A stretch of 64,000 nucleotides of DNA from Geobacter sp. UBA5735. GTDB taxonomy: Bacteria; Desulfobacterota; Desulfuromonadia; Geobacterales; Geobacteraceae. The stretch's first letter is position 1; each line of letters opens with the position of its first letter. The stretch lies in the NCBI GenBank assembly GCA_002419385.1, contig DIFZ01000024.1, forward strand, positions 749-64,748, given 5' to 3'. Below the pieces are notes generated by a model. That model did not search any database, was not told where the DNA came from, and was given only the letters and a program-made list of their open reading frames with translations. Positions 5,731 to 24,119 of this stretch are shown piece after piece. A program made the translations under genes and the position numbers.

Positions 5731-5731
5731 C

Positions 5732-6784: not shown

Positions 6785-6789
6785 AAGAT

Positions 6790-8187: not shown

Positions 8188-8220
8188 AGACCTGCCAGGT
8201 TTTCAAAACCTGGCAGGTCT
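8188..8220. repeat. perfect 33-nt palindrome between two genes of the operon
   Basis: agacctgccaggtttt c aaaacctggcaggtct: 16-nt arms that are perfect reverse complements. It lies in the 113-nt gap between the radical SAM stop and the ligase start. No U-tract follows on the transcribed strand. Confidence 0.6.
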
Positions 8221-8237
8221 GCGTCAACGTTCACTCT

Positions 8238-10051: not shown

Positions 10052-10814
10052 TGAGACGCTCCCCCTTTTTCGAATTTCGTGCAACCAGCAAAAAATAACC
10101 GGGTGAAAACAGCCTGGAACCGGGCAAGCTGCCGCACCATGAATTCAAGATAGTGCGATATTCATGGATTTCAGTATGGGGTTCACTGCTGAGAATCAGT
10201 TGCGCCGCCAGTTCCTTGAGGTACCGTGTATGATCTTCCCACACCAGCAACTCGAACCCGGAATCTCCCAGAAGCTTTTCAATGAAAGTCCGTGTCTGAA
10301 GCATGGAAGAACATCCGCAGTACATCACCGGTTCCCTTGAACCGCCACAGTCCGGCTGGCGGTCATATATGTCGCTCAAAATCAGGACACCGTCGGCGCG
10401 AAGAACACGCAAAAACTCTCTTAGAGCCCGTTGAGGTTCCGTTACCAGTGAAAGCACACACTCGCACAGGATTACGTCGCAGCAGCAATCAGCAAAAGGA
10501 AGCTCTTCGGCCCGCGCCAAAGCCAGGGGAAGCGATTCAGCGCTCCCGGATTCGCGGAACAGGCATCCAGACACATCGACACCGAAAGCCCTGAAGCGGA
10601 GCTTGTTCCGCAAGTACTCGACCGTAGCTCCGGTCCCGCACCCCACATCGAGGACCCGAACCCCAGGGCTGAATCCACCAAGGGCAAGCCCCCTTTCAGT
10701 CAGCCGGAAACCTCCGGGCCTGAGCGCCGGGCCGGTCACCGCACGCAAGGAAGCCGATTCATGCAGTGCTGAGAGCGCCTGAATCGGCGTCTTGCCTTCC
10801 CTACTTGTCTTCAA
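10044..10814 (-). CDS. class I SAM-dependent methyltransferase
   Basis: It has the motif VLDVGCGTGATVEYL and a post-I acidic residue. The track start at 10970 adds a W/R-rich N-terminus that overlaps the Zn-ribbon gene in another frame. I placed the start tentatively at the TTG at 10814; the exact start is uncertain. Confidence 0.65.
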   Translation of the reverse strand: MKTSREGKTPIQALSALHESASLRAVTGPALRPGGFRLTERGLALGGFSPGVRVLDVGCGTGATVEYLRNKLRFRAFGVDVSGCLFRESGSAESLPLALARAEELPFADCCCDVILCECVLSLVTEPQRALREFLRVLRADGVLILSDIYDRQPDCGGSREPVMYCGCSSMLQTRTFIEKLLGDSGFELLVWEDHTRYLKELAAQLILSSEPHTEIHEYRTILNSWCGSLPGSRLFSPGYFLLVARNSKKGERLNG

Positions 10815-11004
10815 GGATTCGTTCTGCTTCCGCCATCCTCCCCAGAGCCAGGCTCTCCGGGACCAGGACGAGATCGCACGCCGGGCAGGCGGGCAGGTCC
10901 ACCTCGAAATTCCCTTTTTCGTATGAAAAGAATACCTTGGTGAGTTGAAGCTTTCCTCCGCAGGATGCACAGGTCCAGGCTTCGGCCTCTTGAGAGAAAT
11001 TCAT
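10801..11004 (-). CDS. small zinc-ribbon protein (CxxC...CxxC)
   Basis: 67 aa: MNFSQEAEAWTCASCGGKLQ...DLPACPACDLVLV. There is an ATGA overlap with the upstream oxidoreductase stop. From memory it matches a small 'redox protein' family named after DVU_1557. Confidence 0.6.
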   Translation of the reverse strand: MNFSQEAEAWTCASCGGKLQLTKVFFSYEKGNFEVDLPACPACDLVLVPESLALGRMAEAERILEDK

Positions 11005-13331
11005 TTCTTGATCCCCACGATTTTCATTCTGTGACAGTATGCATTCAGTACCGTGAAGCCATCGCCCTCAAGCTGATACTCCACCCAGAACGTCACGTTC
11101 GCCGGTTGCAGATATGCCAGGAAATTGCCGCTTTCACTGCACTGCATCCTCATGCCGCTCGATTCGGCATGCAAAATCACTTTCCTGATATCTTCCTCGA
11201 GGATCCTGCGCTCGTCGACGCGTTTGCGCACCTCGGGCGACATGACCAGCGCCAGCTTTTCGTAGTGCTCCAACTGAGGCTCCTTCCCCTCGCCAAGTTC
11301 AGCAAGGACAGATTCCTTGACGCGTACGCGGCCATCGCGGCGCTCCGACCAGGATATCCAGCCGCGGGCGGCGGGATCGGCGCCCGCGACAACGGGGAAA
11401 AGATGCTCGATGATATGGGATATGCGTTTCCCGACAAAGGCGAAGTTGTCCCTGCACATTGCGCAATACGCCAGGTAGTCGTTATCGCTCGCCGTTGTCC
11501 TCCTGGCAACCACGTCCCGTGCCAGGGTCGGGTTCGCGTTGTACATGAGCCCCCCGTAGCCGCAGCATTCCGGCTTCTCTCCGCTCAGTGGAAGCTCCTC
11601 GATGCCCATGCCGAGGGATTCGAGAATCCTGCGGATGCCCTGCTGCTCCTCCTGTTTCTGGCGGGACGCACAGGGATCGACAACCGATACGGTGACTTCC
11701 CCGGCCCCGGACACCCGTACCGAAACGGGCAACCCTGCATCAAGGATGGTACTCCAGAGAGAAACCGGTTCCGTTTCCGGCAGGTGTTCCTGGAACATAT
11801 TCAGGCAGGTAGTGCAGGCAGTGATGATCCGGGGTTTGCCCATCTTCTCCCAGCAACCCCGTATTTCGTTCAGCGCCTGACTGAACAGGTCTTCCCGTCC
11901 TGCCCAGAAAGCGGGGGCACCGCAGCAGTGGAGCAGGATGCCCACACCGCCGGTCAGCTTCTCCCTCAGGTAATGGTAGGAGGACAGGACCTCGCCAGGC
12001 GCGGATCCGCACAGCTGACAGCTGGGGAAATAGAGCCAGGCGCTCTCGCTTTTCCCAGGTTCACGGCGGCACAGGCTGAAAAGATCGCTGTTGCTGAATG
12101 CCATGTCGTCAAGGGCGAATTCGTGGAAGGAAGCCGGCATGATTTTCTGCTTCAGCAGGGTGCGGCGCGCCTCAAGACACATGTCGGCCATGCTGAAATC
12201 GTTCGGGCAGATGGTCTCGCACAGGCCGCAGGTGCTGCAGGAATTCGTGAAAACGTTGTACTGGTGGGCAGCACCCAGGAGGATACGTTCATTATTGAAG
12301 ATCTCCCGTGCGTATTTCTTCGGATACGCCTTGTAGCGTTCCAAAAAGAGGCATTTTTTCACGCACTCCCTGCATTCGCACTGAATGCAGCGCTTCGCCT
12401 CCATGTGCGCCTCTTCTTCCGAATAACCCTTTACGGAATCAGCAGGCACGACCCTCGGCAGCGGATCGATTCCTTCAAGGCTGGTGAAAAGCCGGGAACT
12501 GCATGGGCCCTCGTTTTCCCTGCCGAATTCCAAACCGACCTTCTGCATCAGGCGTTCTATGGAGAGGGCCGGCTTTCTTCCTTCCAATGTCTCCATGACC
12601 GGCGAAAAACCGCCTCGGAAGCGGGTACCGCCACCGGCGAACACCCCATCCCTGCCTGTGGCTCCCGTTGAAGGTGTAACAGCGATGAGGCCGTCGCCAT
12701 CCAGTTCGAGAGGAAGAGCACACCCATGGAATGAATCACGATCCAGAATCACGGCTGCGTATTCTTCACAAACCTGTTCAAAAAATGCCTTGTCAAGCCG
12801 GACTCCAAGGTGGATGTCCGCCATCATACTTTCAAGGACCAAGAGTTCCTCGGCGAGAATTTCCCGTGGCAGTATCCGCTCCGGAAGATCCCAAAGCGGC
12901 CCGCCAAGCCGCTCGCCCGATTCAAAAACGGAAACTACAAACCCTTTCTTGAGAAGATCCCAGGCGGCGGTTACACCGGCCAGACCCGCCCCGAGAACAG
13001 CGATGCGGTGGTTTTTGCGAGGCAGCAGCTGGACACGCTTTTTCCCGGCAAACTTCTCAACGCAGAGCCGTTCCAATGATCCGATGGCCAGGGGACCACC
13101 CACGGGGCCCCGCTTGCACCGCTCCTCGCAAGGATGGTCGCAGATGCGCCCCAGGATGCCGGGAAAAGGCATGGTCTTGTTCAGGACCTTATAGGCAGCG
13201 TCCCAGTCACCCTTGCGGATCTCCTTCAGAAAAAGCCTGGCATCGACATGGAGCGGACAGGCCGACGTACATTCGGGAGATTCCTCCTGGATGCATTTGT
13301 TTTCCCATGCAATGAGTTCGTTCTTTTCCAT
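11001..13331 (-). CDS. multidomain flavo/FeS oxidoreductase: GltD-like N-terminus, NAD(P)/FAD Rossmann, 2x[4Fe-4S], HdrD-type CCG domains
   Basis: Track ORF to 13409; I set the start at the ATG at 13331 (GAAGG upstream). Domains read in order:
- CPLHVDARLFLKEI...ICDHPCEERC, a glutamate-synthase small-subunit-like FeS domain.
- IAVLGAGLAGVTAAWDL, a dinucleotide-binding motif.
- CIQCECRECVKKC and CSTCGLCETICP, ferredoxin-type clusters.
- Two Cys-rich CCG-like regions (LHCCGAP, PECCGYGG). Confidence 0.75.
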   Translation of the reverse strand: MEKNELIAWENKCIQEESPECTSACPLHVDARLFLKEIRKGDWDAAYKVLNKTMPFPGILGRICDHPCEERCKRGPVGGPLAIGSLERLCVEKFAGKKRVQLLPRKNHRIAVLGAGLAGVTAAWDLLKKGFVVSVFESGERLGGPLWDLPERILPREILAEELLVLESMMADIHLGVRLDKAFFEQVCEEYAAVILDRDSFHGCALPLELDGDGLIAVTPSTGATGRDGVFAGGGTRFRGGFSPVMETLEGRKPALSIERLMQKVGLEFGRENEGPCSSRLFTSLEGIDPLPRVVPADSVKGYSEEEAHMEAKRCIQCECRECVKKCLFLERYKAYPKKYAREIFNNERILLGAAHQYNVFTNSCSTCGLCETICPNDFSMADMCLEARRTLLKQKIMPASFHEFALDDMAFSNSDLFSLCRREPGKSESAWLYFPSCQLCGSAPGEVLSSYHYLREKLTGGVGILLHCCGAPAFWAGREDLFSQALNEIRGCWEKMGKPRIITACTTCLNMFQEHLPETEPVSLWSTILDAGLPVSVRVSGAGEVTVSVVDPCASRQKQEEQQGIRRILESLGMGIEELPLSGEKPECCGYGGLMYNANPTLARDVVARRTTASDNDYLAYCAMCRDNFAFVGKRISHIIEHLFPVVAGADPAARGWISWSERRDGRVRVKESVLAELGEGKEPQLEHYEKLALVMSPEVRKRVDERRILEEDIRKVILHAESSGMRMQCSESGNFLAYLQPANVTFWVEYQLEGDGFTVLNAYCHRMKIVGIKK

Positions 13332-13380
13332 CGGGACCTTCTTTCGTCGGGAATCATGGAGAATGACAACAGAAAACGAT

Positions 13381-13407
13381 GGAGAGCCGGTGATGCGGTG
13401 ACTCTCC
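13381..13407 (-). promoter_or_regulatory. 5'-proximal stem-loop of the accessory-operon mRNA
   Basis: The minus-strand RNA GGAGAGUC-ACCGCAUCACC-GGCUCUCC forms an 8-bp stem including one G.U pair. That pair would be a C/A mismatch on the other strand. It is followed by AUCGUUUUCUGUUGU and lies between the ModE box and the start codon. Confidence 0.4.
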
Positions 13408-13435
13408 ATCGTTATAACATAAAATACATTACGAT
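13408..13435 (-). promoter_or_regulatory. ModE-type operator (box 1)
   Basis: The minus strand reads ATCGTAATGTA-TTTTAT-GTTATAACGAT. This is an 11-6-11 palindrome of the ATCGnTATATA-N6-TATATAnCGAT type. It sits about 75 nt upstream of the oxidoreductase start. Confidence 0.7.
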
Positions 13436-13499
13436 TAAAGTGTTATGGAGCCGGCCGGGTCATGCACCGGCTCCAAGAGCTTGAAACAGCCACTTTCTG

Positions 13500-16304
13500 C
13501 TATTTTTTCGGTGGCGCGGAGTTTACATCCTGGCATACATAACCCTGGGCCAGAGCGTCGGACACGTCGAAAGCCTTCTTCGGCGACTTGAGCGCCGCGA
13601 GGATCTTCTCGGGGTATGCCGGCAGGTGACGGATGCGTGCGCCGCATGCGTTGTCGATGGCGTTGATGACGGCGCAGTGAGGAGCGGACAGCGGAAGTTC
13701 GCCGACGCCGCCGGCGCCGAAGGCGCCCAGTTCACGAGGCTTGGTCACATAGATGATTTCGAGATCGTCGGTGATGTCCTTGCAGAACGGGAAGCCCGCG
13801 CCGATCATGTTGGAGTGCGCCTTGATCATCTCGAAGTCTTCGGTAAGGGCCAGTCCGATACCCTGGGCCAAACCGCCGTAGATCTGGCCGTCAACGACCA
13901 GTTGGTTGGTGATGGTGCCGACGTCGGCCACATGGGTCATCTTGTAGCAATGAGCCTTGCCGGTGGTAATGTCGACTTCGACTTCCGCCAGGAACAGACC
14001 GTACATGTAAATACAGAACGGTTCGCCCTTGCCGGTCTCGACGTCGCACGGCGTGCACGGCGTGGTCCATTTGCCGTATACCTGGGTTTCGATTCCTTCC
14101 TTCACCATTTCGTCATAGGTGCGATAGGTGCCGTCAGCTTTCCTCATGGCCGCAAGCAGGTTCTCGCAGGAAACCCTGATGGCGTTGCCGGTGACGACGT
14201 TGTTGCGGCTGCCGCCGGACGGGCCGCTGTTCGGGGTCAGACTGGTGTCGTTCAGGCAGAGGTGGATCTGGGACGGTTTCAGCCCGAGGGGCTTGAGGGT
14301 TTCATGGGCGAATGCAAGGGTGCCCATATCGGAACCCTGGCCGTGATCCTGCCAGCTGTTGCCCATCATCACTTCGTTGTTGGGCAGGAGTTTAGCCCAG
14401 CTTTCGGATGTGTCGGGGCCGTCGAGGCCGCAACCGTAGATGCCGAGGGAAACGCCGACGCCGCACTTCACGGTGTCGGTGCTTCTCAGTTTTGCGTTTG
14501 CAACGGCTCGCTCGTATTTCGGACGGAGCGCTTCGAACTGCTCAGGGAATACGAACACTTCCGGAGTCTGCTGAGTCGGGGTGGTTGCGCCGGGGCGGTA
14601 GCAGTTGATTTCGCGGAGTTCGAACGGGTCTTTCCCCATTTTCTTGGCCAGCTCGTCGATAAGGGACTCGGAGGCGAAGAAGGCCTGCGGAGAACCGTAT
14701 GCGCGGAAAGGGGCGCCCCAGCAGTGGTTGGTGCAGACTGTCCGGCCTTCACCGCGCATGTTCGGGATGTCGTAGCCTGCGAAGGCGTACTGTAAACCAC
14801 GAACGGTGAGGAGGTCGCCGAACTCGGAGTAGGGACCGTGGTCGACGGACCAGTCGGTTTCCGTGGCGAGGAATTTGCCGTCTTTGTCAGCGGCAATCCT
14901 GGCCTTGAACCAGAACGGAGAGCGCTTGCCGGTGTAGAACTGCAGTTGAGCCCAAGAGCAGGAAAGGTGAACCGGTTTGCCGCCGACCGCCATGGTGGCA
15001 ACCGCGAGCAGGGCTTCGTTGGAAGGACAGAATTTGTAACCGAAGGAGCTGCCGCAGGGGTTCTGTACGATGACCAGGTTTTCCAGTTCGACGCCGACAC
15101 CCGGGGCGATCATTGCCTGGTGCAATTGCAGACAAATGGACTTGGAATGGACGACCACCTTGCCTTCATCATTGATGTACGCGAATCCGACGTCCGGCTC
15201 GACGGGCATCTGGGGTTGACGGCCGAGATAGTACTCGCCTTCCACAACATAGGCGGCTTTTTCCATGATCGGCTTGGTGTCCTCACCCTTGACCAGATTC
15301 TGGGTGAAGTAGACGTTCGGGGTGCCGGGGTGAATTTCAATTGCGTCCGGAGCCATGGCTGCCGGCGCGTTCATGTAGTGCGGCAGCACTTCCAGGTCGA
15401 ACTTAACCAGCTTCGCAGCGGCATCGGCATGCGCTTTTGTGTCGGCAATTACGAGAGCAATGGCGTCCCCATACTGGAAGACCTTCTGGTCGTTGAGAAT
15501 CGGGCGGTCCCATCCGTCACCCTTATTGGTGGGGAAGGTAATCAGACCGGTGATGCGGTTCTTGCCCTTGACGTCCTTGTGGGTTACAACCTTGACCACG
15601 CCCGGCGCCTTCTCTGCTGCGGAGGTGTCGATCCCCTTGATGTTTGCATGGGCCACATCGGCGTACGCGATGGCGGCATGGAGGGTGTCTTCGGGGAGCT
15701 GGTCGGCCTTATCGTTGCCGAAATCCCAGAGTCCGCAGACCTTGGCAACGGATGTGGGACGCGGATACCGTGTTCCGTAAACCCTGCCGTCCTCAGGGGC
15801 CTTGTAATCAAATACGGATGCGGACATTTCGCCGCGCAGAACCTTGGCGGCGTCCATCACTGCGTCAACGATGGAGATGTAACCGGTGCAGCGGCAGGCA
15901 TTCTTGTACTGGTGGAACCAGTCACGCACTTCTTCACGGGTCGGGTTCGGGTTGGAATCGAGGAGCGCCTTGGCGGAGACTATGAAACCAGGGGTACAGA
16001 AACCGCACTGAAGTGCGCCGTGGTGGATGAAAGCCTTCTGGAGGGGGTGGAGGTTAATCGGTGTACCGATCCCCTCGGTGGTGGTAATCGTCGACCAGTT
16101 TTCGACCCGCTTCATCTTCATGGTGCAGGTGCGAACGAGCTTGCCGTTCAGGATGACATTGCAGGCGCCGCATGTGCCGGTCGCGCATCCGACCTTGACA
16201 CTGGTCAGGTGTAACTGTTTCCGCAGAACATCGGACAGGAGAGCTTCCTGGTCAACGATCAGCGTCCTCTCGACACCATTTACTTTGAGAACCTTTTTAA
16301 TCAT
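13500..16304 (-). CDS. mop: aldehyde oxidoreductase, xanthine-oxidase family, MOP type (2x[2Fe-2S] plus molybdopterin domains in one chain)
   Basis: Start set at MIKKVLKVNG (AAAGGAGGAGG upstream). The N-terminus KVNGVERTLIVDQEALLSDVLRKQLHLTSVKVGCATGTCGACNVILNGKLVRTCTMKMKRV is near-colinear with Desulfovibrio gigas MOP as I remember it. The second 2Fe-2S motif is CGFCTPGF, followed by about 750 aa of molybdopterin-binding domains. Confidence 0.9.
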   Translation of the reverse strand: MIKKVLKVNGVERTLIVDQEALLSDVLRKQLHLTSVKVGCATGTCGACNVILNGKLVRTCTMKMKRVENWSTITTTEGIGTPINLHPLQKAFIHHGALQCGFCTPGFIVSAKALLDSNPNPTREEVRDWFHQYKNACRCTGYISIVDAVMDAAKVLRGEMSASVFDYKAPEDGRVYGTRYPRPTSVAKVCGLWDFGNDKADQLPEDTLHAAIAYADVAHANIKGIDTSAAEKAPGVVKVVTHKDVKGKNRITGLITFPTNKGDGWDRPILNDQKVFQYGDAIALVIADTKAHADAAAKLVKFDLEVLPHYMNAPAAMAPDAIEIHPGTPNVYFTQNLVKGEDTKPIMEKAAYVVEGEYYLGRQPQMPVEPDVGFAYINDEGKVVVHSKSICLQLHQAMIAPGVGVELENLVIVQNPCGSSFGYKFCPSNEALLAVATMAVGGKPVHLSCSWAQLQFYTGKRSPFWFKARIAADKDGKFLATETDWSVDHGPYSEFGDLLTVRGLQYAFAGYDIPNMRGEGRTVCTNHCWGAPFRAYGSPQAFFASESLIDELAKKMGKDPFELREINCYRPGATTPTQQTPEVFVFPEQFEALRPKYERAVANAKLRSTDTVKCGVGVSLGIYGCGLDGPDTSESWAKLLPNNEVMMGNSWQDHGQGSDMGTLAFAHETLKPLGLKPSQIHLCLNDTSLTPNSGPSGGSRNNVVTGNAIRVSCENLLAAMRKADGTYRTYDEMVKEGIETQVYGKWTTPCTPCDVETGKGEPFCIYMYGLFLAEVEVDITTGKAHCYKMTHVADVGTITNQLVVDGQIYGGLAQGIGLALTEDFEMIKAHSNMIGAGFPFCKDITDDLEIIYVTKPRELGAFGAGGVGELPLSAPHCAVINAIDNACGARIRHLPAYPEKILAALKSPKKAFDVSDALAQGYVCQDVNSAPPKK

Positions 16305-16511
16305 ACTTCCTCCTCCTTTGGGTTTTATGTAACCGGGCAATGCCCGGCTACGAGGGATGAAACAAACCCTTCATCGCTCCTGTGGAGAGGATGGCGCTGA
16401 AGGACGGCGAACCAACAAGAATGCCGATAACAGTTCATTCAGACCCACTACCCTGCCTGTGGATGAGACAGGGGTGCTAAAAAAAAGACATGCCGAAAGT
16501 TGTCCATACCT

Positions 16512-16557
16512 GAAAAAAGGCCCCTCACTCCGCCAGTGGAGGAGACAGGAGTGAGGG
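16512..16557 (-). terminator. intrinsic terminator after the MoeA-like gene
   Basis: Minus-strand RNA: CCCUCACUCC-(16 nt)-GGAGUGAGGG followed by GCCUUUUUUC. Confidence 0.65.
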
Positions 16558-16581
16558 AAGGTGGAATGACAAACTTTCTTT

Positions 16582-17607
16582 CTACCCCTTGCCGAAACTG
16601 CAGGCGGGGTAGCGGCACGCTTCACAGTCGAGACAGTAGCCGCCATGACCCAGTGCGACTATGTCTGCGCGACTTACGCGCTCACCTGCAAGTATTCTCG
16701 GTACGATCAGTTCAACTATCGTTGCCTTGTGATACATGGCGCATCCGGGAACGCCGATGATCGGCACATCGCCGATGTAGGCAAGCATGAACATGGACCC
16801 CGGAAAAGTGGGCGCCCCGTACGTGACGACGTCAGCTCCACTAGCCTTGATTGAAGCGGGGGTGCGGTCATCAGGGTCAACCGACATCCCGCCGCTTGCA
16901 ACGATCATTTCTGCACCTTCTGCCAGGAGCTGCCGGATGGACGCAACAATCACCGACGGGTCATCGGGGGTGAATATCTGCCGCATGACGGTGCTGCCTA
17001 CCTCGGCAAACTTGGCACGCAGGACCGGGCCGAACCGGTCTTCGATCCTGCCGTGGAACACTTCGTTCCCGGTCGTGACGAGGCCGACTTTCAGGGAACG
17101 GAACGGTTTTATTTTGACAACAGGCCCGTATTCCCCGCAGATCCTTTCAACGGCGAGGATCCGGTCGTTGTCGGTATAAAGGGGTATGATGCGTGTACCT
17201 GCGACCGGCATGTCAGCTGAGACCTGCTGATCGGAATGAAGGGTTGCAAGGACGATCTGCTCTATGGAATTAATTTCCTGGAGGGCGGCTGAGTTGACTT
17301 TGATGAGACCATTACGGGCAGAGACCAGCTTGACCTTTCCTTCGGACGGCTCAGAAAAAACGATGCCCTCCCCCGCAGCCGCCCGCGCTATCCGGAGTGC
17401 GGCGTCATTTTCATGCACGAAACCTTCCTTGAGATCAAGGACATATATGTTGTCTTTGCCCAGCTTCAGCAGTTTCGGGACATCTTCTTCCTTTATGACG
17501 TGCCCCTTTTTGAACGCACGCCCCTTGAATTCTCCCGGGACGATGCGGGTTATGTCATGGGAAAGAACCCTGCCGACTGCTTCCTGGACGGGGATGGATT
17601 TCATCAT
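16582..17607 (-). CDS. MoeA-like molybdopterin-binding protein (MoeA N-domain plus MoCF_biosynth domain, Cys-rich tail, no MoeA_C)
   Basis: Start set at the ATGATG at 17607 (AGGAG upstream). It has IPVQEAVGRVLSHDI (MoeA-like) and LKVGLVTTGNEV...ASGGMSVDPDDRTP (MoCF domain). The C-terminal tail is GHGGYCLDCEACRYPACSFGKG. Confidence 0.7.
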   Translation of the reverse strand: MMKSIPVQEAVGRVLSHDITRIVPGEFKGRAFKKGHVIKEEDVPKLLKLGKDNIYVLDLKEGFVHENDAALRIARAAAGEGIVFSEPSEGKVKLVSARNGLIKVNSAALQEINSIEQIVLATLHSDQQVSADMPVAGTRIIPLYTDNDRILAVERICGEYGPVVKIKPFRSLKVGLVTTGNEVFHGRIEDRFGPVLRAKFAEVGSTVMRQIFTPDDPSVIVASIRQLLAEGAEMIVASGGMSVDPDDRTPASIKASGADVVTYGAPTFPGSMFMLAYIGDVPIIGVPGCAMYHKATIVELIVPRILAGERVSRADIVALGHGGYCLDCEACRYPACSFGKG

Positions 17608-17715: not shown

Positions 17716-17761
17716 ATGAAAAACCCGCATCAATACTGAATTCATTCAGTATCAATGCGGG
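17716..17761 (-). terminator. intrinsic terminator/attenuator inside the MoeA-like leader
   Basis: Minus-strand RNA: CCCGCAUUGAUACUGAAU-GA-AUUCAGUAUUGAUGCGGG then UUUUUCAUUC. The arms are 18 nt and contain two G.U pairs. Those would be C/A mismatches on the plus strand, so the hairpin is strand-specific. It sits about 110 nt upstream of the start codon and about 150 nt downstream of the predicted promoter. Confidence 0.7.
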
Positions 17762-17802
17762 TTTCGTTAGGTCCGCACGGTGCGGAGGACGAAATCGGCG
17801 CT
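17757..17802 (-). promoter_or_regulatory. conserved structured leader motif, copy A
   Basis: Minus-strand RNA: AGCGCCGAUUUCGUCCUCCGCACCGUGCGGACCUAACGAAACCCGC. It has an outer helix UUUCGU/ACGAAA and an inner hairpin UCCGCA/UGCGGA. Its 3' CCCGC is the first part of the terminator stem. A second copy lies at 22185..22229. Confidence 0.6.
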
Positions 17803-17914: not shown

Positions 17915-17948
17915 ATCGTTATTTATCATGTTATATAACCATATGCAA
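17915..17948 (-). promoter_or_regulatory. ModE-type operator (box 2) overlapping a sigma-70-like promoter
   Basis: The plus strand reads ATCGTTATTTA-TCATGT-TATATAACCAT (17915..17942), with 2 mismatches to the ATCGnTATATA-N6-TATATAnCGAT pattern. On the minus strand, TTGCAT (17948..17943) is followed by a 17-nt spacer and then TAAATA (17925..17920). The box therefore covers the spacer and the -10. Confidence 0.75.
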
Positions 17949-18202: not shown

Positions 18203-18236
18203 TTGCATTTCGTTATTTAATTTGTTACATAACGAG
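18203..18236 (+). promoter_or_regulatory. ModE-type operator (box 3) overlapping the promoter of the modE-like gene
   Basis: TTGCAT (18203..18208) is immediately followed by TTCGTTATTTA-ATTTGT-TACATAACGAG (18209..18236). TACATA sits 17 nt after the -35. The geometry is the same as for box 2. Confidence 0.7.
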
Positions 18237-18346: not shown

Positions 18347-18703
18347 ATGGACAACAAAAGAATAGACATGTCCGGCAAAATCTACCTCCACCTGAAAGAC
18401 TGCAAACCCCTTGATATGGAAAGCATAGCGCTTCTAGAAAAGGTCGACATCCACGGGTCGATAGCCCGCACTGCGAGAGAGATCGGCATCAGCTATCCGA
18501 AGGTATGGCATACTATCGACACGTTGAACAGACTGTCATCCAAGCCCCTGGTGGTAAAACTGGCCGGTGGCAAAGGCGGCGGCGGCGGCACATTCCTCAC
18601 TGAAGAGGGCAGAAAGTTCATCAAACGTTTCAAGTCAATACAGCGGACCCACGAAAGGTTCATCCGGCAGCTCGAAGACAAATGGCACGGGAGCCGCAGG
18701 TAA
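18347..18703 (+). CDS. modE: ModE N-terminal-domain-only winged-helix regulator (no molybdate-binding Mop domains)
   Basis: 118 aa. The block LLEKVDIHGSIARTAREIGISYPKVWHTIDTLNRLSSKPLVVKLAGGKGGGGGTFLTEEGRKFI is the ModE/LysR-type HTH with the characteristic Gly-rich loop. The ORF ends where the di-Mop domain of full-length ModE would begin. Confidence 0.8.
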   Translation: MDNKRIDMSGKIYLHLKDCKPLDMESIALLEKVDIHGSIARTAREIGISYPKVWHTIDTLNRLSSKPLVVKLAGGKGGGGGTFLTEEGRKFIKRFKSIQRTHERFIRQLEDKWHGSRR

Positions 18704-18834: not shown

Positions 18835-19242
18835 TCAATCCAGGTCATCATGGGAGTGATCGCACCCGCCGCTGCCATCCCCGCAACGGCCTGCCTCTGC
18901 ACTGCATTGCTTTTTCACTTCCGGCAGCTCCTGCCTGCCGAACAGTTCCGCATTTTCCCTGACGCTTTCCGATTGCGCCTCGTAGACCATGAATCCCATC
19001 ATGTTCAACAGTTCCAGGAGGTTGTCGCCTATTCCGCCGACGACCACTCCGTCCAGTTCGCTGCCGGCCAGGGCTTTGAACGGATTGCACCCAGCCTCAG
19101 GGGCGGACCTGTCTTGGTTGGGGACGGCCGATGTTGCTTCGGTTTCGGTATCAACCAACAAAAAGTGGGGCGCTGAAGCGAAGTGGCCGTAAATACGGCT
19201 TTCCATCCCCTCATCCTCGATTACGGGAAAACATACTTTCAT
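18835..19242 (-). CDS. NifB/NifX-type (dinitrogenase FeMo-cofactor-binding domain) protein, orange-protein-like, with Cys/His-rich tail
   Basis: Start set at MKVCFPV. The blocks HFASAPHFLLVD...DGVVVGGIGDNLLELLNMMGFMVYEA fit the Nitro_FeMo-Co fold. The tail is CSAEAGRCGDGSGGCDHSHDD. Confidence 0.7.
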   Translation of the reverse strand: MKVCFPVIEDEGMESRIYGHFASAPHFLLVDTETEATSAVPNQDRSAPEAGCNPFKALAGSELDGVVVGGIGDNLLELLNMMGFMVYEAQSESVRENAELFGRQELPEVKKQCSAEAGRCGDGSGGCDHSHDDLD

Positions 19243-19330
19243 ATCCAAAAACCTCCAATGAGATAACGGGCAGTCCATGCCCGGACAAAAACTGAATGCC
19301 TGCCGTCAAGCCGGCTGACACCGCCAGTAC

Positions 19331-20680
19331 CTACGGAGCTTTCATTTCTTCCATGACCAATGCCTTGCCCACCAGGTCCATCACGCCGCCGCACACCGTA
19401 GCCCCCATGCCGTAATGCTTCAGGACAAGGGGGAGTTGTGCTTTGCAGCTGGCACAGGGCGCAGCGACATAATCCAGCGGCTGAAGCGCTTGTATCTGCC
19501 GAGCTTTCATTTTTCCGAACTGCATGCGCAAATCGTGCATTTCGTCCATGAGCAGACCGGAACCGCCCCCGCAGCAGAAATTGCGCTCCCGGTTGGGGGA
19601 CATTTCGACGAATTCTTCTACGCAGGCCTTGACGATCTGCCTCGGCGAATCCAAAAGTCCTGTCCCTCTGCCATAGTTGCAGGAGTCGTGGAGCGTTGCC
19701 CTCAGGGGCAGCCGGGTGAGATTCAGCTCCGGGAGCCGTTTCGCCACGTAATCCAGGACATGTTCCAGATGAAAAGGAACGGGGCCGTTCGCACCTTCGG
19801 CATACATCCGGGCTGCACGCCAGCCATGGCCGCACTCTCCCAGAATCACATGCCTGGCACCGACCGCCGCCGCAGCCGTCCGCATACGTCGGTCATGCTT
19901 TTTAAGAATCTCCACATCGAAGTGAAGGCCGTAGTTCGCAGCCTCAAGCATGACCGAAGAGAGAGTCCAGTCGACTCCCAGTATGTGGAAGACCTTGGCT
20001 GCCCCCAGCAGTGTCTCCACATTGGTAAAGAGTTCTGATGATGACGGCAGGAACAGGACTTCGGTGTGCGGTTTGTCAACCGGAATCCTGATGTCGATGC
20101 CGGTTTCATCGCGCAATTCGTCTTCCAGAAAGGAGCAGCTGTCGATGATGGCCGGCTTGAGAATTCCGCTGTTGTTTCCCGTCTGGAGTTCATTGCGGCC
20201 GATAGTGACCAGAAAGCTCGGTGCAATCCCCATCCGGAGCAGGATGTTGCGCCCGGCAAGGACGATTTCTCCCGTGTCGATACCGCAGGGGCAATAAACG
20301 GCACAGCGGCGGCACACGGTGCACTGGTAAAAGTAGCTCGCCCACGTGTCGAGAGTATCGGCATCGAACTCCCGTGCGCCGGCAAAACCGCGGAACAGTC
20401 TGCCGGACCAGGTGAAATACCTCGCGAATATGCTGCGCAGCAGACCGGCCCGTGCTGCGGGCAGGTTATTGAAATCGTCCGTCCCCAGGTAACTGTGGCA
20501 GGCTTTGGCACACGCCCCGCACCTGGTGCAGGTTTCCAGCATGACCGAAAACGACCTGGCAAATTTCCTGAACTCATCCAGCAGGTCGAGAGTCCGTTCC
20601 TTCATGGAAGACTCGTCGACCTGTTCGATGCCGAGATGGTGCAAATCCTCCTTTTTCGCCGGATGATAGGGCAGGTTCAC
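19331..20680 (-). CDS. dsrK: DsrK/HmeD-like FeS protein with CCG domains
   Basis: 449 aa. It has CTRCGACAKACH...LLRSIF and CTVCRRCAVYCPCGID (2x[4Fe-4S]), plus C-terminal CCG motifs (HDSCNYGRG, NFCCGGGSG). There is a GTGA overlap with the DsrM-like stop. Confidence 0.75.
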   Translation of the reverse strand: MNLPYHPAKKEDLHHLGIEQVDESSMKERTLDLLDEFRKFARSFSVMLETCTRCGACAKACHSYLGTDDFNNLPAARAGLLRSIFARYFTWSGRLFRGFAGAREFDADTLDTWASYFYQCTVCRRCAVYCPCGIDTGEIVLAGRNILLRMGIAPSFLVTIGRNELQTGNNSGILKPAIIDSCSFLEDELRDETGIDIRIPVDKPHTEVLFLPSSSELFTNVETLLGAAKVFHILGVDWTLSSVMLEAANYGLHFDVEILKKHDRRMRTAAAAVGARHVILGECGHGWRAARMYAEGANGPVPFHLEHVLDYVAKRLPELNLTRLPLRATLHDSCNYGRGTGLLDSPRQIVKACVEEFVEMSPNRERNFCCGGGSGLLMDEMHDLRMQFGKMKARQIQALQPLDYVAAPCASCKAQLPLVLKHYGMGATVCGGVMDLVGKALVMEEMKAP

Positions 20681-21498
20681 GTCTGCCCTCCCCTATCCAC
20701 CGGTCCCTGTGCAGCTGCGTGAAGGGCAGCATGAACCCTGCGTGCCGCAAAGCGCGACCGGGGAGCGGCGCCTTCCGCGGTCGGACTGGCCGGGGGAGCT
20801 TCCATGAGCATCGCCCGGTTGACGATGGAACCGGCAGCGTGGAGCAGGCGTGAAAAGGGGAAATACAGCAACAGGATGTTCGCCAGCAGAAAATGGCTGA
20901 CGAACATCGGGCTGTCGGGCAGCGCCGCGGAACGGAACATGATGAGATCGCTCATGTAAGCCCTGACGGCGGGGAGATCCGCTTGAAAACCGGGCAGGTA
21001 CATCATGATTCCCGAGACGGCAAGCGCCATGAGCAGCAGCAGGTTGAAAAAATCTTCCGCCACGGAAAGCTTCCTGACCTCCGGATTGACGATTCTGCCG
21101 ATGAGAAGCGCGTAAAGCGAGAGCACCATCACGCCACCCGACAGCCCTCCCAGCAATTTTGACATGAATCGGCTCGTTCCAGGGCTCACGCCGACAAGGG
21201 TAAACTGGTCACGAAGACAGTATATCCCGACCACATGGCCTGCGATAACCAGCCCCAGAGACAGGTGGAACAGCCAGACCCGAAGCCAGAGTGCCTTGTC
21301 TTCGCGGAAAATGCGGCCGCAGAAAAAAAACTCCCCTGCGAGAGCCGCGACCTTTCCCATCGTGTTCCGTGGTGCGGGAAAAAGCGTGATGTGGAACGGG
21401 ACAGGCTTTTTCAACCATCCCGCGATCTTCATAACCGTTCCGGAGATGAAGACAGCACAAGCCGTATAGGGAAGAAGTGCTCCCAGCAGAAACTCCAT
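20677..21498 (-). CDS. dsrM: DsrM/NarI-like membrane cytochrome b
   Basis: 273 aa, about 5 TM helices. The start resembles nitrate reductase gamma subunit family proteins (LLPYTACAVFISGTVMKIAGWLKKPVPF). Conserved His residues lie in the helices. Confidence 0.7.
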   Translation of the reverse strand: MEFLLGALLPYTACAVFISGTVMKIAGWLKKPVPFHITLFPAPRNTMGKVAALAGEFFFCGRIFREDKALWLRVWLFHLSLGLVIAGHVVGIYCLRDQFTLVGVSPGTSRFMSKLLGGLSGGVMVLSLYALLIGRIVNPEVRKLSVAEDFFNLLLLMALAVSGIMMYLPGFQADLPAVRAYMSDLIMFRSAALPDSPMFVSHFLLANILLLYFPFSRLLHAAGSIVNRAMLMEAPPASPTAEGAAPRSRFAARRVHAALHAAAQGPVDRGGQT

Positions 21499-21520
21499 GC
21501 ATCATCCTTGCTGCATCGTG

Positions 21521-21838
21521 TTACAGGCAACCTGCCGGCTTGGGAAGGCCTGCCACTTTGCAGGCTCCTTTCGCGGGACCGGGTGGGAACAGATCCTCGA
21601 TCTCCTTCAAGGCCAGCCCGGTATCCTTGCAGAGCTTCCGGATCATCGGAGCAATGCGGAACCGCTCATAATAATCACGCAGGTAGTAGATCACCCGCCA
21701 GTGATTGTCCGTAAACTCTGCAATGTTCACCAGTGCCCCGTATGCCCTGGCCACATCCTCGCTCCATTCTTCCGGATGCACGAGAAAACCATCTTCGTTG
21801 AGTTCAACAAGTTTTCCGTTAACCTTGAGATACGCCAT
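21521..21838 (-). CDS. dsrC: DsrC-type sulfur carrier (TusE/DsrC/DsvC family) with both C-terminal cysteines
   Basis: 105 aa. It ends ...GPAKGACKVAGLPKPAGCL, which has the penultimate Cys plus a second Cys 10 residues upstream. This is nearly identical to the Desulfovibrio DsrC tail as I remember it. Confidence 0.85.
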   Translation of the reverse strand: MAYLKVNGKLVELNEDGFLVHPEEWSEDVARAYGALVNIAEFTDNHWRVIYYLRDYYERFRIAPMIRKLCKDTGLALKEIEDLFPPGPAKGACKVAGLPKPAGCL

Positions 21839-21947
21839 GACATTACAGCCCTGAATTCACGTTGTCCCAGTGAACTAGTTTATGGTAAAAGTCTTGCGCG
21901 GTGTTCCCGTCGCGGGGCAGGAGGCTGCCAACCGGTTGCGTCCAGGT

Positions 21948-22118
21948 TCAGCTGCCGTATATATTGCTCAGGGTATAGGTAAGACACTTGGTGCATTGCC
22001 ATTTGTATTGGCCCAAATGATCATGGCAGAACCATGCACCACATTTCGAACATTTCTTGTTCAGGTAGTACTCGGTATCTATCTCTTTGTTGCATGTGGC
22101 ACATTTTTCAATCGACAT
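21948..22118 (-). CDS. small Cys-rich zinc-ribbon protein (hypothetical)
   Basis: This is the internal ATG of the track ORF 21948..22256. Sequence: MSIEKCATCNKEIDTEYYLNKKCSKCGAWFCHDHLGQYKWQCTKCL. AAGGG lies 7 nt upstream. It sits right after the leader motif and terminator (copy B). Confidence 0.4.
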   Translation of the reverse strand: MSIEKCATCNKEIDTEYYLNKKCSKCGAWFCHDHLGQYKWQCTKCLTYTLSNIYGS

Positions 22119-22140: not shown

Positions 22141-22188
22141 AAAAATAAACGCACCCCTGAAATGCCGGTATAAGCGGCTCTGGTGCGG
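22141..22188 (-). terminator. terminator-like hairpin plus U-run after leader motif copy B
   Basis: Minus-strand RNA: CGCACC-(26 nt with an inner GCCG/CGGC stem)-GGUGCG followed by UUUAUUUUUCC. It is weaker than copy A. Confidence 0.45.
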
Positions 22189-22229
22189 GTTTCGTTGGGT
22201 CTGCTGAAGCAGAGGACGAAATGTGCGCT
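22185..22229 (-). promoter_or_regulatory. conserved structured leader motif, copy B
   Basis: Minus-strand RNA: AGCGCACAUUUCGUCCUCUGCUUCAGCAGACCCAACGAAACCCGC. The outer helix and flanks are the same as in copy A. The inner hairpin is UCUGC/GCAGA, with a compensatory C:G to U:A change relative to copy A. Confidence 0.6.
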
Positions 22230-22302: not shown

Positions 22303-22476
22303 CTACTTGAATGTTTCGGTTTTCTCTATATAGCTGACCCCTCCGTCCTTGAAGGAAATGACCACTTTCCCGGAAAAATTGTCCGGAATTATGTTCAACT
22401 CCGAAAGAGTGTCGGAAACTTTCCTCTTCCAGACCGAATTCGGCACCCTTATGTCTGTGACGACTTGCCTTCGCAT
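22303..22476 (-). CDS. YezD/DUF2292-like small protein
   Basis: This is the internal ATG of the track ORF 22303..22545. The C-terminus GKVVISFKDGGVSYIEKTETFK matches the remembered DUF2292 pattern (G-x-V-x-I-x-x-x-D-G-x-V-x-x-I-E-K-T-E). Confidence 0.5.
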   Translation of the reverse strand: MRRQVVTDIRVPNSVWKRKVSDTLSELNIIPDNFSGKVVISFKDGGVSYIEKTETFK

Positions 22477-22719: not shown

Positions 22720-22761
22720 TTGCACCATTCGTTATATATATTATTAAACAACGGAGTGCAA
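22720..22761. promoter_or_regulatory. ModE-type operator (box 4) bracketed by inverted -35-like hexamers
   Basis: TTGCAC (22720..22725), then ca, then TTCGTTATATA-TATTAT-TAAACAACGGA (22728..22755), then GTGCAA (22756..22761). The left half-site is near perfect and the right half has 4 mismatches. It lies in the divergent region between the yezD-like gene and the MOT1-type transporter gene. Confidence 0.6.
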
Positions 22762-22958
22762 GAGAATTTTTCTGCCCGGCACCCATGGTCATCCCGCAAA
22801 TCCCGTAAACATTCTTGACGATGCGCGACCGAACGGGTAACCTTGCACATCGGCGTGATGGTCACTTACCGCGGACGGCCATGCTCCCGCGAACCTCCAG
22901 AAAAGATTCAAACGAGCAAATCGCCCCGGCCGACATTACAACCTGGATATTGAAATAC

Positions 22959-24119
22959 ATGAGAATCGGTTCATTCGAATTCAACCTTCGCGAGCTTTCC
23001 GGATCTCTCGGCGACATGGGCACCTTCGTGCCGCTGGCAGTCGGGTACATCGCGGTCTGTGGCATGGAGCCCGCAGGGATCCTGCTGATGATGGGCCTGG
23101 CGAATATTGCCACCGGCCTGTACTACCGGCTGCCAATTCCCATCGAACCGATGAAAGTCATCGCCGCCGCGGCAATTGCGCAGCAGTGGCCGCCGTCGAT
23201 GATCCTGGCATCAGGATTCTCCATGGGCATCATCTGGATGCTCATTGCCGCTACAGGGGCGGCCTCCCGTGTAGCGAACCTGACTCCTTCTGCGGTTGTT
23301 CGCGGCATCCAGGTAGCGTTGGGAATTCTTCTGGCAATTGAGGCCGGAAAACTGCTTTCCACCTCCTGGCTTCTGGGCGGACTGGGCCTTGCGATCGGCA
23401 TCGGCTTTCGGAAATGCCGCCATGCGCCGGCGGCCGTTGTGCTGGTTCTGCTGGGAGTCGCGATCATGATGATCAACGGCACGTTCAGCCAGGTCATGAG
23501 CCCGGAGATTACCCTTCCTCACCTTGCCACCTTCAGCCTCGGGGAAGTCTGGCAATCCCTGGTCCAGGCGGGATTTGCCCAGATACCGCTCACCGTGACC
23601 AATGCCACCATCGCCACATCGTGTCTCATTTCCTCCTACTGGCCCGAACGACAGGTCAGTCCGCAGCGGCTTTCCGTCAGCCAGGGGATTATGAACCTGT
23701 TTTCTCCTTTTTTCGGCGGCATGCCCATGTGCCACGGTGCGGGCGGCTTGGCCGGCCAGTACTATTTCGGAGCACGGACCGGCGGCACGAACATAATCGA
23801 AGGAATTATCGAAATCATTCTCGGACTCTTCTTCGCCGCTTCGGTGGCTGGGCTGTTTGCTTCTTTTCCCCAGGCCGTGACCGGAACCATGCTGATGCTC
23901 GTGGGATTTGAGCTCATAAAGTTTGCCCGTGACGTGCGTGGCTCGCGGGACACACTTGCCATGGCAATGACCGTTGCGGTATCCCTGGCGTCAAATATGG
24001 CATTCGGCTTCCTTGCAGGCTTGCTGGTAAACCGAATGCTGCCGTATATGAACACTGAAAAACAGCATCCGAAGAAACCCCGTCAATCTCCCCAAAGATC
24101 ATCCGGGAACGGAGAGTGA
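22959..24119 (+). CDS. MOT1-family (sulfate/molybdate transporter-like) membrane protein
   Basis: Start set at MRIGSFEFNLRELSGSLGDMGTFVPL (the track start at 22815 adds a non-membrane R-rich leader). It is polytopic. The GD(M/L)GT and ...MPMCHGAGGLAGQYYFGARTGG blocks are typical of the putative molybdate transporter family as I remember it. Confidence 0.7.
   Translation: MRIGSFEFNLRELSGSLGDMGTFVPLAVGYIAVCGMEPAGILLMMGLANIATGLYYRLPIPIEPMKVIAAAAIAQQWPPSMILASGFSMGIIWMLIAATGAASRVANLTPSAVVRGIQVALGILLAIEAGKLLSTSWLLGGLGLAIGIGFRKCRHAPAAVVLVLLGVAIMMINGTFSQVMSPEITLPHLATFSLGEVWQSLVQAGFAQIPLTVTNATIATSCLISSYWPERQVSPQRLSVSQGIMNLFSPFFGGMPMCHGAGGLAGQYYFGARTGGTNIIEGIIEIILGLFFAASVAGLFASFPQAVTGTMLMLVGFELIKFARDVRGSRDTLAMAMTVAVSLASNMAFGFLAGLLVNRMLPYMNTEKQHPKKPRQSPQRSSGNGE

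Follow-up and report, generated by a model that had tools for sequence, protein, structure and literature searches.

What function can a DsrC protein and a two-subunit DsrMK complex have at a locus where genes for molybdenum enzymes are clustered and genes for the sulfite reductase DsrAB are lacking? The question is raised by a 64,000-nucleotide stretch of DNA from Geobacter sp. UBA5735 (assembly GCA_002419385.1, contig DIFZ01000024.1, positions 749 to 64,748; hereafter called the window), for which a first-pass annotation had described four co-oriented and tightly spaced genes, dsrC, dsrM, dsrK and a NifX-like gene, inside a molybdenum island, and had proposed that they encode a thiol or persulfide relay serving Mo-S chemistry rather than respiration. 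The comparative analysis described here indicates that the dsrCMK cassette is likely a DsrAB-independent system that derives from a dsrAB-dsrMK-dsrC operon and was recruited, in the Geobacterales, into a regulon marked by the RNA motif Moco-II and by ModE-box-like palindromes. We are fairly confident that it serves this molybdenum regulon rather than DsrAB-based respiration: a Dsr set that stands without a sulfite reductase and under a leader associated with molybdenum cofactor (Moco) genes has probably been re-used for a molybdenum enzyme. The detachment from DsrAB and the placement in a molybdenum regulon thereby uphold part of the earlier proposal; sulfur transfer to molybdenum, be it as a sulfido ligand or by way of thiomolybdate, remains hypothetical.

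The operon is encoded on the minus strand from 22229 to 18835 and comprises, in this order, a Moco-II leader, a gene for a small zinc-ribbon protein (ZnR), dsrC, a dsrM-like gene, a dsrK-like gene and the NifX-like gene, with gaps of 109, 22, -4 and 88 nucleotides between the five genes. The four genes of the initial description are intact and were all identified by Pfam and NCBIfam models, and their common orientation and tight spacing were as described; the span of 18835-22118 that had been assigned to them also includes the conserved ZnR reading frame, which runs from 22118 to 21948. The reported lack of dsrAB was borne out as well: tblastn with the DsrA and DsrB proteins of Thermosinus gave no match in the 64-kb window, and none of its scanned open reading frames (ORFs) of at least 150 amino acids matched a sulfur-respiration family.

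The product of dsrC is, by its sequence, DsrC sensu stricto and not a TusE-type protein. It scores 117.2 bits with the Pfam family PF04358 (cut-off 24.9) and 106.4 bits with TIGR03342 (cut-off 53.5), whereas the 63.9 bits obtained with the TusE equivalog model do not reach the cut-off of 191. Similarly, the crystallised DsrC proteins of Desulfomicrobium and Desulfovibrio (2xsj_C, 2v4j_C) are matched with 102-107 bits, as compared to 38 bits for the TusE-type protein 7syb. Both redox cysteines are kept, as had been noticed at first sight: the tail GACKVAGLPKPAGCL corresponds to Cys-x10-Cys-Leu. The tail ACKVAGLPKPAGCL carries one substitution (T to A) relative to the AGLPKPTGC-type motif of DiSCo, which tolerates one mismatch. 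Clade-specific changes occur at the base and tip of the C-terminal arm, with GCV changed to GCL, FPSGP to FPPGP or FSCKT, and VDEDGF to LNEDGF.

The DsrM-like protein, which is of the DsrMK-only ('DsrM-1') type, is predicted to be a NarI-type membrane subunit with two b hemes. It matches PF02665 (Nitrate_red_gam) with 76 bits and corresponds in size to the Thermosinus DsrM (271-273 amino acids), and the putative heme ligands H78/H88 and H202/H220 have NarI spacing and are conserved in 44 DsrM sequences. With the NCBIfam DsrM model NF038037 it scores 98.8 bits, below the cut-off of 300, and the DsrK-like protein reaches 381.4 bits with NF045796, short of the cut-off of 400; as these models are named for subunits of DsrMKJOP, the shortfalls may reflect the JOP-type sequences that they describe. 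In 90 DsrK sequences, 59 positions show a conservation of at least 97%, and the DsrK-like protein agrees with the consensus at each of them, including C51/54/57/61, C120/123/126/130, C283-x-H285, H331-D332-x-C334, C369C370 and C409, and its C412, which completes a CxxC motif, is invariant in 20 close relatives. It is catalytically intact by its sequence, which holds two [4Fe-4S] motifs together with a single domain for a CCG/non-cubane cluster. When a set of PDB sequences that does not include the DsrMKJOP structures was searched with DsrK, a distant CCG protein (9ojn) was the sole match. A cryo-EM study of the Archaeoglobus fulgidus DsrMKJOP complex described a non-ligating cysteine and a nearby histidine of DsrK, to which the C283-x-H285 pair corresponds, as strictly conserved and probably functional, and argued that DsrM of DsrMK-only complexes keeps an accessible, NarI-like quinol site (preprint 10.64898/2026.08.25.746951).

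A phylogeny of this DsrK against respiratory ones, which the first-pass annotation had suggested, places it in a separate clade. In a neighbour-joining tree of 90 DsrK sequences from fetched loci (100 bootstrap replicates), 15 sequences from the window, from metagenome-assembled genomes (MAGs) of Geobacteraceae and Desulfuromonadales, from Pelobacter propionicus and from metagenome contigs were monophyletic in 100 of 100 replicates. This clade is nested in the DsrMK-only group, and its sister clade, with a joint node that is likewise recovered in 100/100, contains sequences of Thermosinus, Anaerospora, Selenomonadales, Nitrospiraceae and Planctomycetaceae. All seven sister loci (L012-L017 and L088; L numbers designate the fetched loci) show the arrangement fdx-dsrA-dsrB-dsrM-dsrK, with dsrC next in every locus that is long enough. 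In the window clade the order is dsrC-dsrM-dsrK, and tblastn with the same two queries found dsrAB within 10 kb in 0/15 members, the search covering the loci and not whole genomes. When a database of 5.8 billion proteins was searched with Thermosinus DsrB, the best 120 matches were all Firmicutes/Negativicutes proteins of at least 70% identity, with no Desulfuromonadales names among them; since the match list was saturated at this level, it is no evidence of absence. On the simplest reading, dsrMK-dsrC would have been captured from a sulfite-reductase operon, with loss of DsrAB and strong purifying selection since then. Additionally, in Anaerospora hongkongensis (L015, 13610-16116) a further, distantly related pair of DsrM/DsrK-like genes (25-31% identity) lies 2 kb 3' of dsrAB-dsrMK-dsrC; this pair was used as outgroup.

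The element that had been recorded as leader motif copy B 5' of the operon is the Moco-II RNA, RF01713 (53.4 bits, gathering score 35, E = 1e-6). Copy A (53.6 bits) precedes the partner operon, which encodes a MoeA-like protein, a MOP-type aldehyde oxidoreductase (MOP) and an NAD(P)-binding flavoprotein with a CCG domain (FAD/CCG); when positions 1-32000 of the window were scanned for additional riboswitches, of the Moco-II or another type, with E values of up to 1 allowed, these two copies were all that was found. The inner stem of Moco-II covaries across 52 distinct copies, with U-A, C-G or U-G at one pair and G-C or A-U at another. In copy A, with a fold z-score of -6.2, a 20-bp intrinsic terminator overlaps the 3' conserved AAACCCGC, and this overlap suggests that the terminator competes with the helix of the motif itself. 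In copy B, a hairpin CCGCACC…GGGGTGCG with the U-run TTTATTTTT overlaps the 3' conserved ACCCGC of the motif. This hairpin was read by eye, has a large loop and is weaker than that of copy A; in the computed fold (z-score -0.9) the upstream GCGCAC pairs with GUGCG instead, and a simple terminator scan detected no terminator after copy B.

Conservation of the molybdenum linkage in relatives had been proposed as a test of the idea, and the linkage is found to be both positional and regulatory. Moco-II precedes the dsrC operon or lies within its upstream region in 13 of the 13 clade members for which upstream sequence exists, even where no molybdenum gene is adjacent; the copies directly 5' of the operon are those of the window, L006, L009, L010, P. 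propionicus (L086) and 8-11 metagenome loci. In L010 the operon stands alone behind its Moco-II leader, with no molybdenum-related domain in the eight scanned flanking ORFs (0/8), and the Moco-II-led dsrC operon of P. propionicus also lacks an adjacent molybdenum gene. Because the leader is kept across relatives in this way, the link to molybdenum is conserved; a DsrAB-independent role is likely. Among the eight seeds with which the motif was first described is the P. propionicus copy (CP000482, position 1639928); 'MoeA' and 'nitrate reductase' were listed there as associated genes (Weinberg et al. 2010). What was published as 'nitrate reductase' is DsrM, a NarI-family protein, of the dsrC-dsrMK operon. 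A seed of Thiobacillus denitrificans (NC_007404.1/2557036-2556993), which belongs to the 'diverged' beta-proteobacterial ones, has the stop codon of a dsrC gene (…AGLPKPTGCI*) on one side and the start of a DsrM-looking membrane protein on the other; from its position it is also a dsrC/dsrM intergenic hairpin.

A scan of metagenome contigs with a Moco-II motif pattern yielded 56 copies in 53 loci. Downstream of 11 of these stands (ZnR-)dsrC-dsrM-dsrK(-NifX-like or -GCAxxG), truncated operons included; the dsrC operon is thus a regular part of a regulon for molybdoenzymes and cofactor maturation. The other copies precede a MoeA-like gene, usually followed by MOP (15/56), a 57-amino-acid ORF and then a MoeA-like gene (3/56), or MOP directly (5/56). 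NifS-like cysteine desulfurase genes (Aminotran_5, 275 bits) follow six copies, with an XdhC gene next in L129. Four copies lead to a TylF-like methyltransferase gene with a NifX-like gene (L099, L104, L114, L101) and four to genes for a SAM-methyltransferase, a TonB-dependent receptor and a periplasmic binding protein (L095, L100, L111, L126), two precede operons for NAD-linked formate dehydrogenase (NuoEF-like and FdhA; L092, L137), and in the remaining six cases the downstream sequence is short or of no known type. Moco-II was found directly 5' of NifS-like genes in L129 (338-2717), L127, L140, L136, L091, L123 and, by the Rfam scan, L141; in L127 and L140 the NifS gene adjoins an island with genes for a ModE N-terminal protein (ModE-N), a small ORF and ZnR. 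These arrangements suggest that genes for Moco sulfuration belong to the Moco-II regulon.

How the cassette could act can be pictured as follows. Transcription would start at the ModE-box promoter 5' of the small ORF that precedes the leader, and the Moco-II attenuator would gate read-through into ZnR-dsrC-dsrM-dsrK-nifX-like. DsrM would exchange electrons with menaquinone and the single non-cubane [4Fe-4S] site of DsrK would act on the Cys-x10-Cys arm of DsrC, which could thus diffuse in the cytoplasm and be the thiol/disulfide (or persulfide) partner of the molybdenum-enzyme system. In the version that we favor, DsrC would carry reducing equivalents between the FAD/CCG flavoprotein and DsrMK, linking the oxidation of aldehydes or NAD(P)H to menaquinone, which resembles the use of a common disulfide carrier by heterodisulfide reductases of the soluble and the membrane type. 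The FAD/CCG protein, a second CCG enzyme encoded directly 3' of MOP (NF045663, 996 bits), is the candidate alternative partner for DsrC; its pairwise alignment with DsrK (28 bits) is a generic Fer4/CCG resemblance that is silent on a shared substrate. An electron shuttle of this type would account for the use of a respiratory-type complex, and also for the supply of a DsrC beside an aldehyde oxidoreductase system of the Desulfovibrio vulgaris DVU_1551-1559 type in a host that has no respiratory DsrC. D. vulgaris itself has abundant DsrC, the respiratory one. The shuttle is a tentative proposal that may well turn out to be wrong. For the wider statement that bona fide DsrC and DsrMK work outside dissimilatory sulfur metabolism, as molybdoenzyme accessories under the switch of a Moco-associated RNA in Geobacterales, and either provide sulfur and electrons for Mo=S of an aldehyde oxidoreductase or form a new aldehyde-to-menaquinone chain by way of a protein disulfide, the balance tips slightly in favor.

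The alternative closest to the first-pass proposal is a sulfur relay, in which sulfur loaded onto CysA of DsrC by a Moco-II-regulated, NifS-like cysteine desulfurase would pass as sulfide to XdhC-bound molybdopterin cytosine dinucleotide to give Mo=S, or in which DsrC would handle thiomolybdate together with the NifX-like protein, while DsrK, DsrM and menaquinol recycle the disulfide or trisulfide of DsrC. Such a role suits the DsrC/TusE family of sulfur carriers, to which the window protein with its two cysteines belongs, and DsrK keeps the non-ligating cysteine that was seen persulfurated by cryo-EM (preprint 10.64898/2026.08.25.746951). The window encodes an 'XdhC family aldehyde oxidoreductase maturation factor' and a NifX-like protein with an ORP (orange protein)-like fold and an invariant Cys/His set, and in relatives the NifS-like genes behind Moco-II (6/56 copies and L141), the NifS-XdhC pair of L129 and the NifS genes next to the ModE-N/small ORF/ZnR island in L127 and L140 point in the same direction. 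However, NifS and XdhC are expected as maturation factors of MOP regardless of DsrC, a NifS gene was looked for in the window and none was found, and the NifX-like gene also occurs without dsrCMK, with GCAxxG in its place in Pelobacter. A di-heme, quinone-linked reductase is moreover unusual and seems excessive for a biosynthetic step of low flux, and the plain reduction of a disulfide by menaquinol is thermodynamically unfavorable. To our knowledge, Moco sulfuration requires neither DsrC nor a membrane complex in the systems that have been studied. We regard the sulfur relay as rather unlikely, and the electron shuttle as at least as plausible as a relay that delivers the sulfido ligand.

Ordinary sulfite reduction would require dsrAB elsewhere in the genome, with the window genes as the only or the second dsrC-dsrMK, and a molybdenum context that stems from mosaicism of the island or from an indirect need, such as that of molybdenum-dependent thiosulfate, polysulfide or tetrathionate reductases which form sulfite or sulfur. 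It would explain why DsrC, DsrK and DsrM are fully canonical at catalytic positions and why the closest outgroup operons are true dsrAB operons. It fits poorly with the contrast between the clade, where no member has dsrAB within 10 kb, and the sister loci, where dsrAB is immediately 5' in 7/7, and also with the rearranged gene order that begins with dsrC, the clade-specific substitutions at the base of the DsrC arm and the retention of the Moco-II leader even at loci without a nearby molybdenum gene; the missing Desulfuromonadales names among the best 120 DsrB matches are a weak point on the same side. Neither Geobacter nor Pelobacter is known to reduce sulfite or sulfate, and we consider this explanation improbable. 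The same low probability is given to a stand-alone cytoplasmic persulfide or sulfane-sulfur reductase, in which DsrC would take up sulfane sulfur during respiration of S0 or polysulfide or under persulfide stress and DsrMK would release H2S, with molybdenum control as a secondary feature that, for instance, limits thiomolybdate when molybdenum is scarce. Many Desulfuromonadales reduce S0, the chemistry of DsrK is the release of sulfide from DsrC-bound sulfur, and the solitary operon of L010 has no molybdenum gene nearby. Yet no gene for TusA, DsrE, a rhodanese or a polysulfide reductase was seen beside any copy, and this explanation gives no direct reason for the strictly conserved Moco-II leader.

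Several observations weigh against a DsrAB-independent cassette that serves a molybdenum enzyme, and against the electron shuttle in particular. The absence of dsrAB is a statement about locus flanks, and the DiSCo paper places, in passing, a P. propionicus DsrK match beside organisms with DsrAB and is silent on whether DsrAB is present, which could be taken to favor sulfite reduction. The term 'Moco-responsive' is drawn from gene content. Relatives exist in which ZnR, NifX-like, MOP and FAD/CCG genes occur without dsrCMK on the same locus, and families of the DVU_1551-1559 type of MOP cluster are found in organisms whose DsrC also serves DsrAB. Finally, the connection between DsrC and FAD/CCG consists of neighborhood and a shared regulon, and the retained features of DsrK that were proposed for trisulfide or persulfide chemistry fit a sulfur-carrying DsrC at least as well as a pure disulfide shuttle.

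The NifX-like protein and the small proteins of the operon tell of a modular history. The start codon of the NifX-like gene had been set at 19278; it is most likely at 19242, where a GGAGG ribosome-binding site precedes a reading frame of 135 amino acids, and independent gene calls concur. The likeness to orange protein that had been claimed holds for the fold and not for the sequence: the protein matches PF02579 (Nitro_FeMo-Co) with 54 bits, a PDB sequence search gave MTH1175 and TM1290 as matches and no ORP match at E below 0.01, whereas in Foldseek searches with the AlphaFold2 model (pLDDT 83) TM1290, TM1816 and ORP (2wfb) match about equally (E = 1.6e-6 to 4.9e-6, TM-score on the query side, TMq, 0.6-0.68). 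For 2wfb the values are E = 4.9e-6, TMq 0.68, a target-side score (TMt) of 0.76 and 20% identity. H20, C52, C127 and H129 are invariant in the family and C120 is nearly so, and the C-terminal tail has the form AGRCG…GxCxH; the invariant residues suggest a metal or cluster site. The family appears small, with 129 proteins at E ≤ 1e-8 in a word-limited search, and the few named ones are all from Geobacteraceae/Desulfuromonadales.

ZnR consists of 56 amino acids, eight of which are Cys/His ligands in the pattern CxxC…CxxCx4CxxH…CxxC; the motif HLGQYK.QC is invariant. The protein has no Pfam match, is 51-98% identical in 20 loci with the Cys/His pattern intact, and is encoded by the first gene 3' of Moco-II in most operons of the dsrC and ZnR-NifX-like types; possible roles are those of a regulator and of a chaperone for a metal or cofactor. 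The protein of the small ORF 5' of the leader ('orf80') probably has 57 amino acids (MRRQVVTD…GKVVISFKDGGVSYIEKTETFK) and, with 48-92% identity in about 20 loci, also lacks a Pfam match; the ORF adjoins Moco-II copies on the 5' or 3' side in many loci, including a published P. carbinolicus seed.

The description of the NifX-like gene as operonic with the dsr genes holds for its tight spacing and common orientation; as a functional link it is weaker. In L096, L098, L118, L125 and L132 the order is orf-ZnR-NifX-like-[Moco-II]-MoeA-like-MOP without dsrCMK, followed by FAD/CCG where the locus extends far enough. The Pelobacter type has dsrC-dsrM-dsrK-GCAxxG as a Moco-II operon of its own, at a distance of about 20 kb from the MoeA-like copy. 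Across lineages, orf80, ZnR, NifX-like, MoeA-like, MOP, FAD/CCG, GCAxxG and DsrC/M/K are shuffled between two Moco-II operons. Two further loci show intermediate states: Moco-II-ZnR-DsrC-NifX-like without dsrMK in L130 (19-2002), and ZnR, a decayed dsrC remnant of 58 amino acids and NifX-like in L103 (239-1065). Both suggest that the cassette was gained and lost within a ZnR-NifX-like unit of greater age, into which dsrCMK looks to have been inserted. The idea that the NifX-like protein is an intrinsic part of a Dsr cassette was rejected, since ZnR-NifX-like occurs without dsrCMK and the Pelobacter type has GCAxxG instead; together with the L130 and L103 variants, the units lacking dsrCMK identify it as a member of the regulon that dsrCMK joined.

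The position of the operon inside a molybdenum island, as originally described, is evident from genes for a MOT1-family transporter, ModE-N, MoeA-like, MOP, XdhC, MocA-like and modBC-like proteins (Table). The co-regulated partner operon (MoeA-like, MOP and FAD/CCG) occupies 11001-17607 on the minus strand, and the island also contains genes for the XdhC-type aldehyde oxidoreductase (AOR) maturation factor, a MocA-like nucleoside triphosphate transferase and modBC-like proteins. The accessory cluster that follows MOP encodes FAD/CCG, a methyltransferase, a GCAxxG protein, a TrsS radical SAM protein, an AMP-ligase, the XdhC-type factor and the MocA-like protein; the genes at 4579-16304 match NF045668, NF045663, NF045667, NF045669, NF045646 (TrsS), NF045666, NF045664 and NF045665, all above the cut-offs. 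Those at 4579-13409 on the minus strand belong to families named for D. vulgaris DVU_1551, 1553, 1555 and 1556, to TrsS, a radical SAM (seleno)protein, to 'diclust_near_Sec' and to the XdhC-type AOR factor; they form a conserved accessory system of aldehyde oxidoreductase.

Four ModE-box-like palindromes of the type CGTTRTNTA-N6-TATATAACG (chance expectation 0.04) lie in promoter regions, at 13410-13433, 17917-17940, 18211-18234 and 22730-22753, and are present at the promoters of both Moco-II operons. The last of these, in what had been called the ModE-box 4 region, is a perfect match with zero mismatches. Like the Moco-II leader, the ModE-like box is conserved. The ModE-N protein scores 83.5 bits with TIGR00637 (cut-off 98.5) and 32.9 bits with HTH_1 and has no Mop or TOBE domains, so that the sole ModE-like gene of the island (18347-18703) lacks the molybdate-binding part; the gene is syntenic in L006-L009. 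The MOT1 transporter gene is kept in L006 and L009. Transporters of this family are better known from plants and algae. The remainder of the window consists of housekeeping genes. An identical DsrK protein is also encoded on hydrocarbon-metagenome contigs and in the MAG GCA_002347465.1; the nearest genomes are those of uncultured Geobacteraceae (85% DsrK identity, 96% MOP identity), and the whole island is common to four Geobacteraceae species with the same gene order.

Table. Features of the molybdenum island around the dsrC operon (positions in the window)
Feature	Position	Strand	Remarks
NAD(P)-binding flavoprotein with CCG domain (FAD/CCG)	11001-13331	-	NF045663, 996 bits; directly 3' of MOP
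MOP-type aldehyde oxidoreductase	13500-16304	-	NF045668, 1568 bits
MoeA-like gene	16582-17607	-	MoCF_biosynth, 77 bits
Moco-II RNA copy A	17757-17802	-	leader of MoeA-like/MOP operon; 20-bp terminator at 17721-17764
ModE N-terminal (helix-turn-helix) protein	18347-18703	+	convergent with dsrC operon
NifX-like (Nitro_FeMo-Co) gene	18835-19242	-	PF02579; 88-nt gap after dsrK
dsrK-like	19331-20680	-	GTGA start/stop overlap with dsrM; Fer4_8 and CCG domains
dsrM-like	20677-21498	-	PF02665; 22-nt gap after dsrC
dsrC	21521-21838	-	PF04358, TIGR03342
56-amino-acid zinc-ribbon (ZnR) protein	21948-22118	-	first gene 3' of Moco-II
Terminator-like hairpin and U-run, presumed attenuator	22141-22188	-	read from sequence
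Moco-II RNA copy B	22185-22229	-	leader of ZnR-dsrC-dsrM-dsrK-nifX-like operon; RF01713
Small conserved ORF 'orf80'	22303-22476	-	directly 5' of Moco-II copy B
ModE-like palindrome CGTTGTTTA-N6-TATATAACG	22730-22753	.	divergent promoter region between MOT1 gene and small ORF/dsrC operon
MOT1-family molybdate transporter	22815-24119	+	PF16983, 184 bits; divergent from dsrC operon promoter region

In genomes and metagenomes, DsrC and DsrMK serve as markers of sulfite or sulfate respiration, and a clade that lacks DsrAB and belongs to a molybdenum regulon would give false calls of sulfur cycling. If the proposal is true, the 'bacterial heterodisulfide' can be put to use in chemistry of other kinds. 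The orphan Moco-II RNA gains a clearer regulon, composed of MOP, MoeA-like, NifS-XdhC, formate dehydrogenase and DsrC-MK, and its 'nitrate reductase' label is corrected. Furthermore, the handling of the sulfido ligand or of electrons for MOP-type enzymes in anaerobes becomes testable in the cultured P. propionicus DSM 2379. Each component belongs to a known family (DsrC, two-subunit DsrMK, Moco-II and the COG1433/ORP fold); a DsrAB-less clade within a Moco regulon is undescribed in the literature that was searched, in which no description of DsrC-MK in Geobacter or Pelobacter was found either.

Among characterized systems, the closest relative is the two-subunit DsrMK of the Thermosinus carboxydivorans type, which is sister by DsrK (56-61% identity, bootstrap 100). 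The DsrMK-DsrC systems of Negativicutes have the same subunit sizes (271-273 and 444-449 amino acids), the catalytic Cys/His residues, the four heme histidines and the Cys-x10-Cys arm of DsrC. The window differs from the Thermosinus operon in that no dsrAB or ferredoxin gene is found 5', in the order dsrC-dsrM-dsrK rather than dsrM-dsrK-dsrC, in the Moco-II element and ModE-like box 5' and the NifX-like or GCAxxG gene 3', and in the terminal residue of DsrC, which is Leu instead of Val. With the DsrMKJOP complexes of Desulfovibrio and Archaeoglobus the system shares DsrK, a NarI-type DsrM and presumably oxidised DsrC as the substrate, whereas dsrJOP is absent and DsrK is 35-39% identical. Concerning the leader, both window copies are typical of RF01713 (53 bits, as compared to the gathering score of 35), copy A with a typical terminator, and the regulon is wider than in the original description of Moco-II, as it includes MOP, NifS-XdhC, formate dehydrogenase, methyltransferases and NifX-like genes.

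A DsrC-family protein, a cysteine desulfurase and XdhC are united in the Moco-II regulon, conceptually a persulfide relay to a cofactor, which is comparable to the TusA/TusBCD/TusE sulfur relay and the XdhC-NifS4 sulfuration of Moco in Escherichia coli and Rhodobacter capsulatus. Unlike TusE, the window protein is of the DsrC type (107 versus 38 bits), no TusA or TusBCD genes were seen, and the membrane complex DsrMK has no counterpart in those pathways. The NifX-like protein shares its fold and the Pfam domain Nitro_FeMo-Co with ORP of Desulfovibrio gigas and with MTH1175 and TM1290 (COG1433). It differs from ORP, which holds its cluster non-covalently, in having its own H20, C52 and Cys-x6-8-Cys-x-His tail, and its gene adjoins dsrK and ModE-N instead of orp-type neighbors. 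The aldehyde oxidoreductase cluster DVU_1551-DVU_1559 of D. vulgaris, finally, is built from the same families as the cluster in the window, to which the Geobacteraceae system adds a dedicated dsrC-dsrMK cassette and control by Moco-II and ModE.

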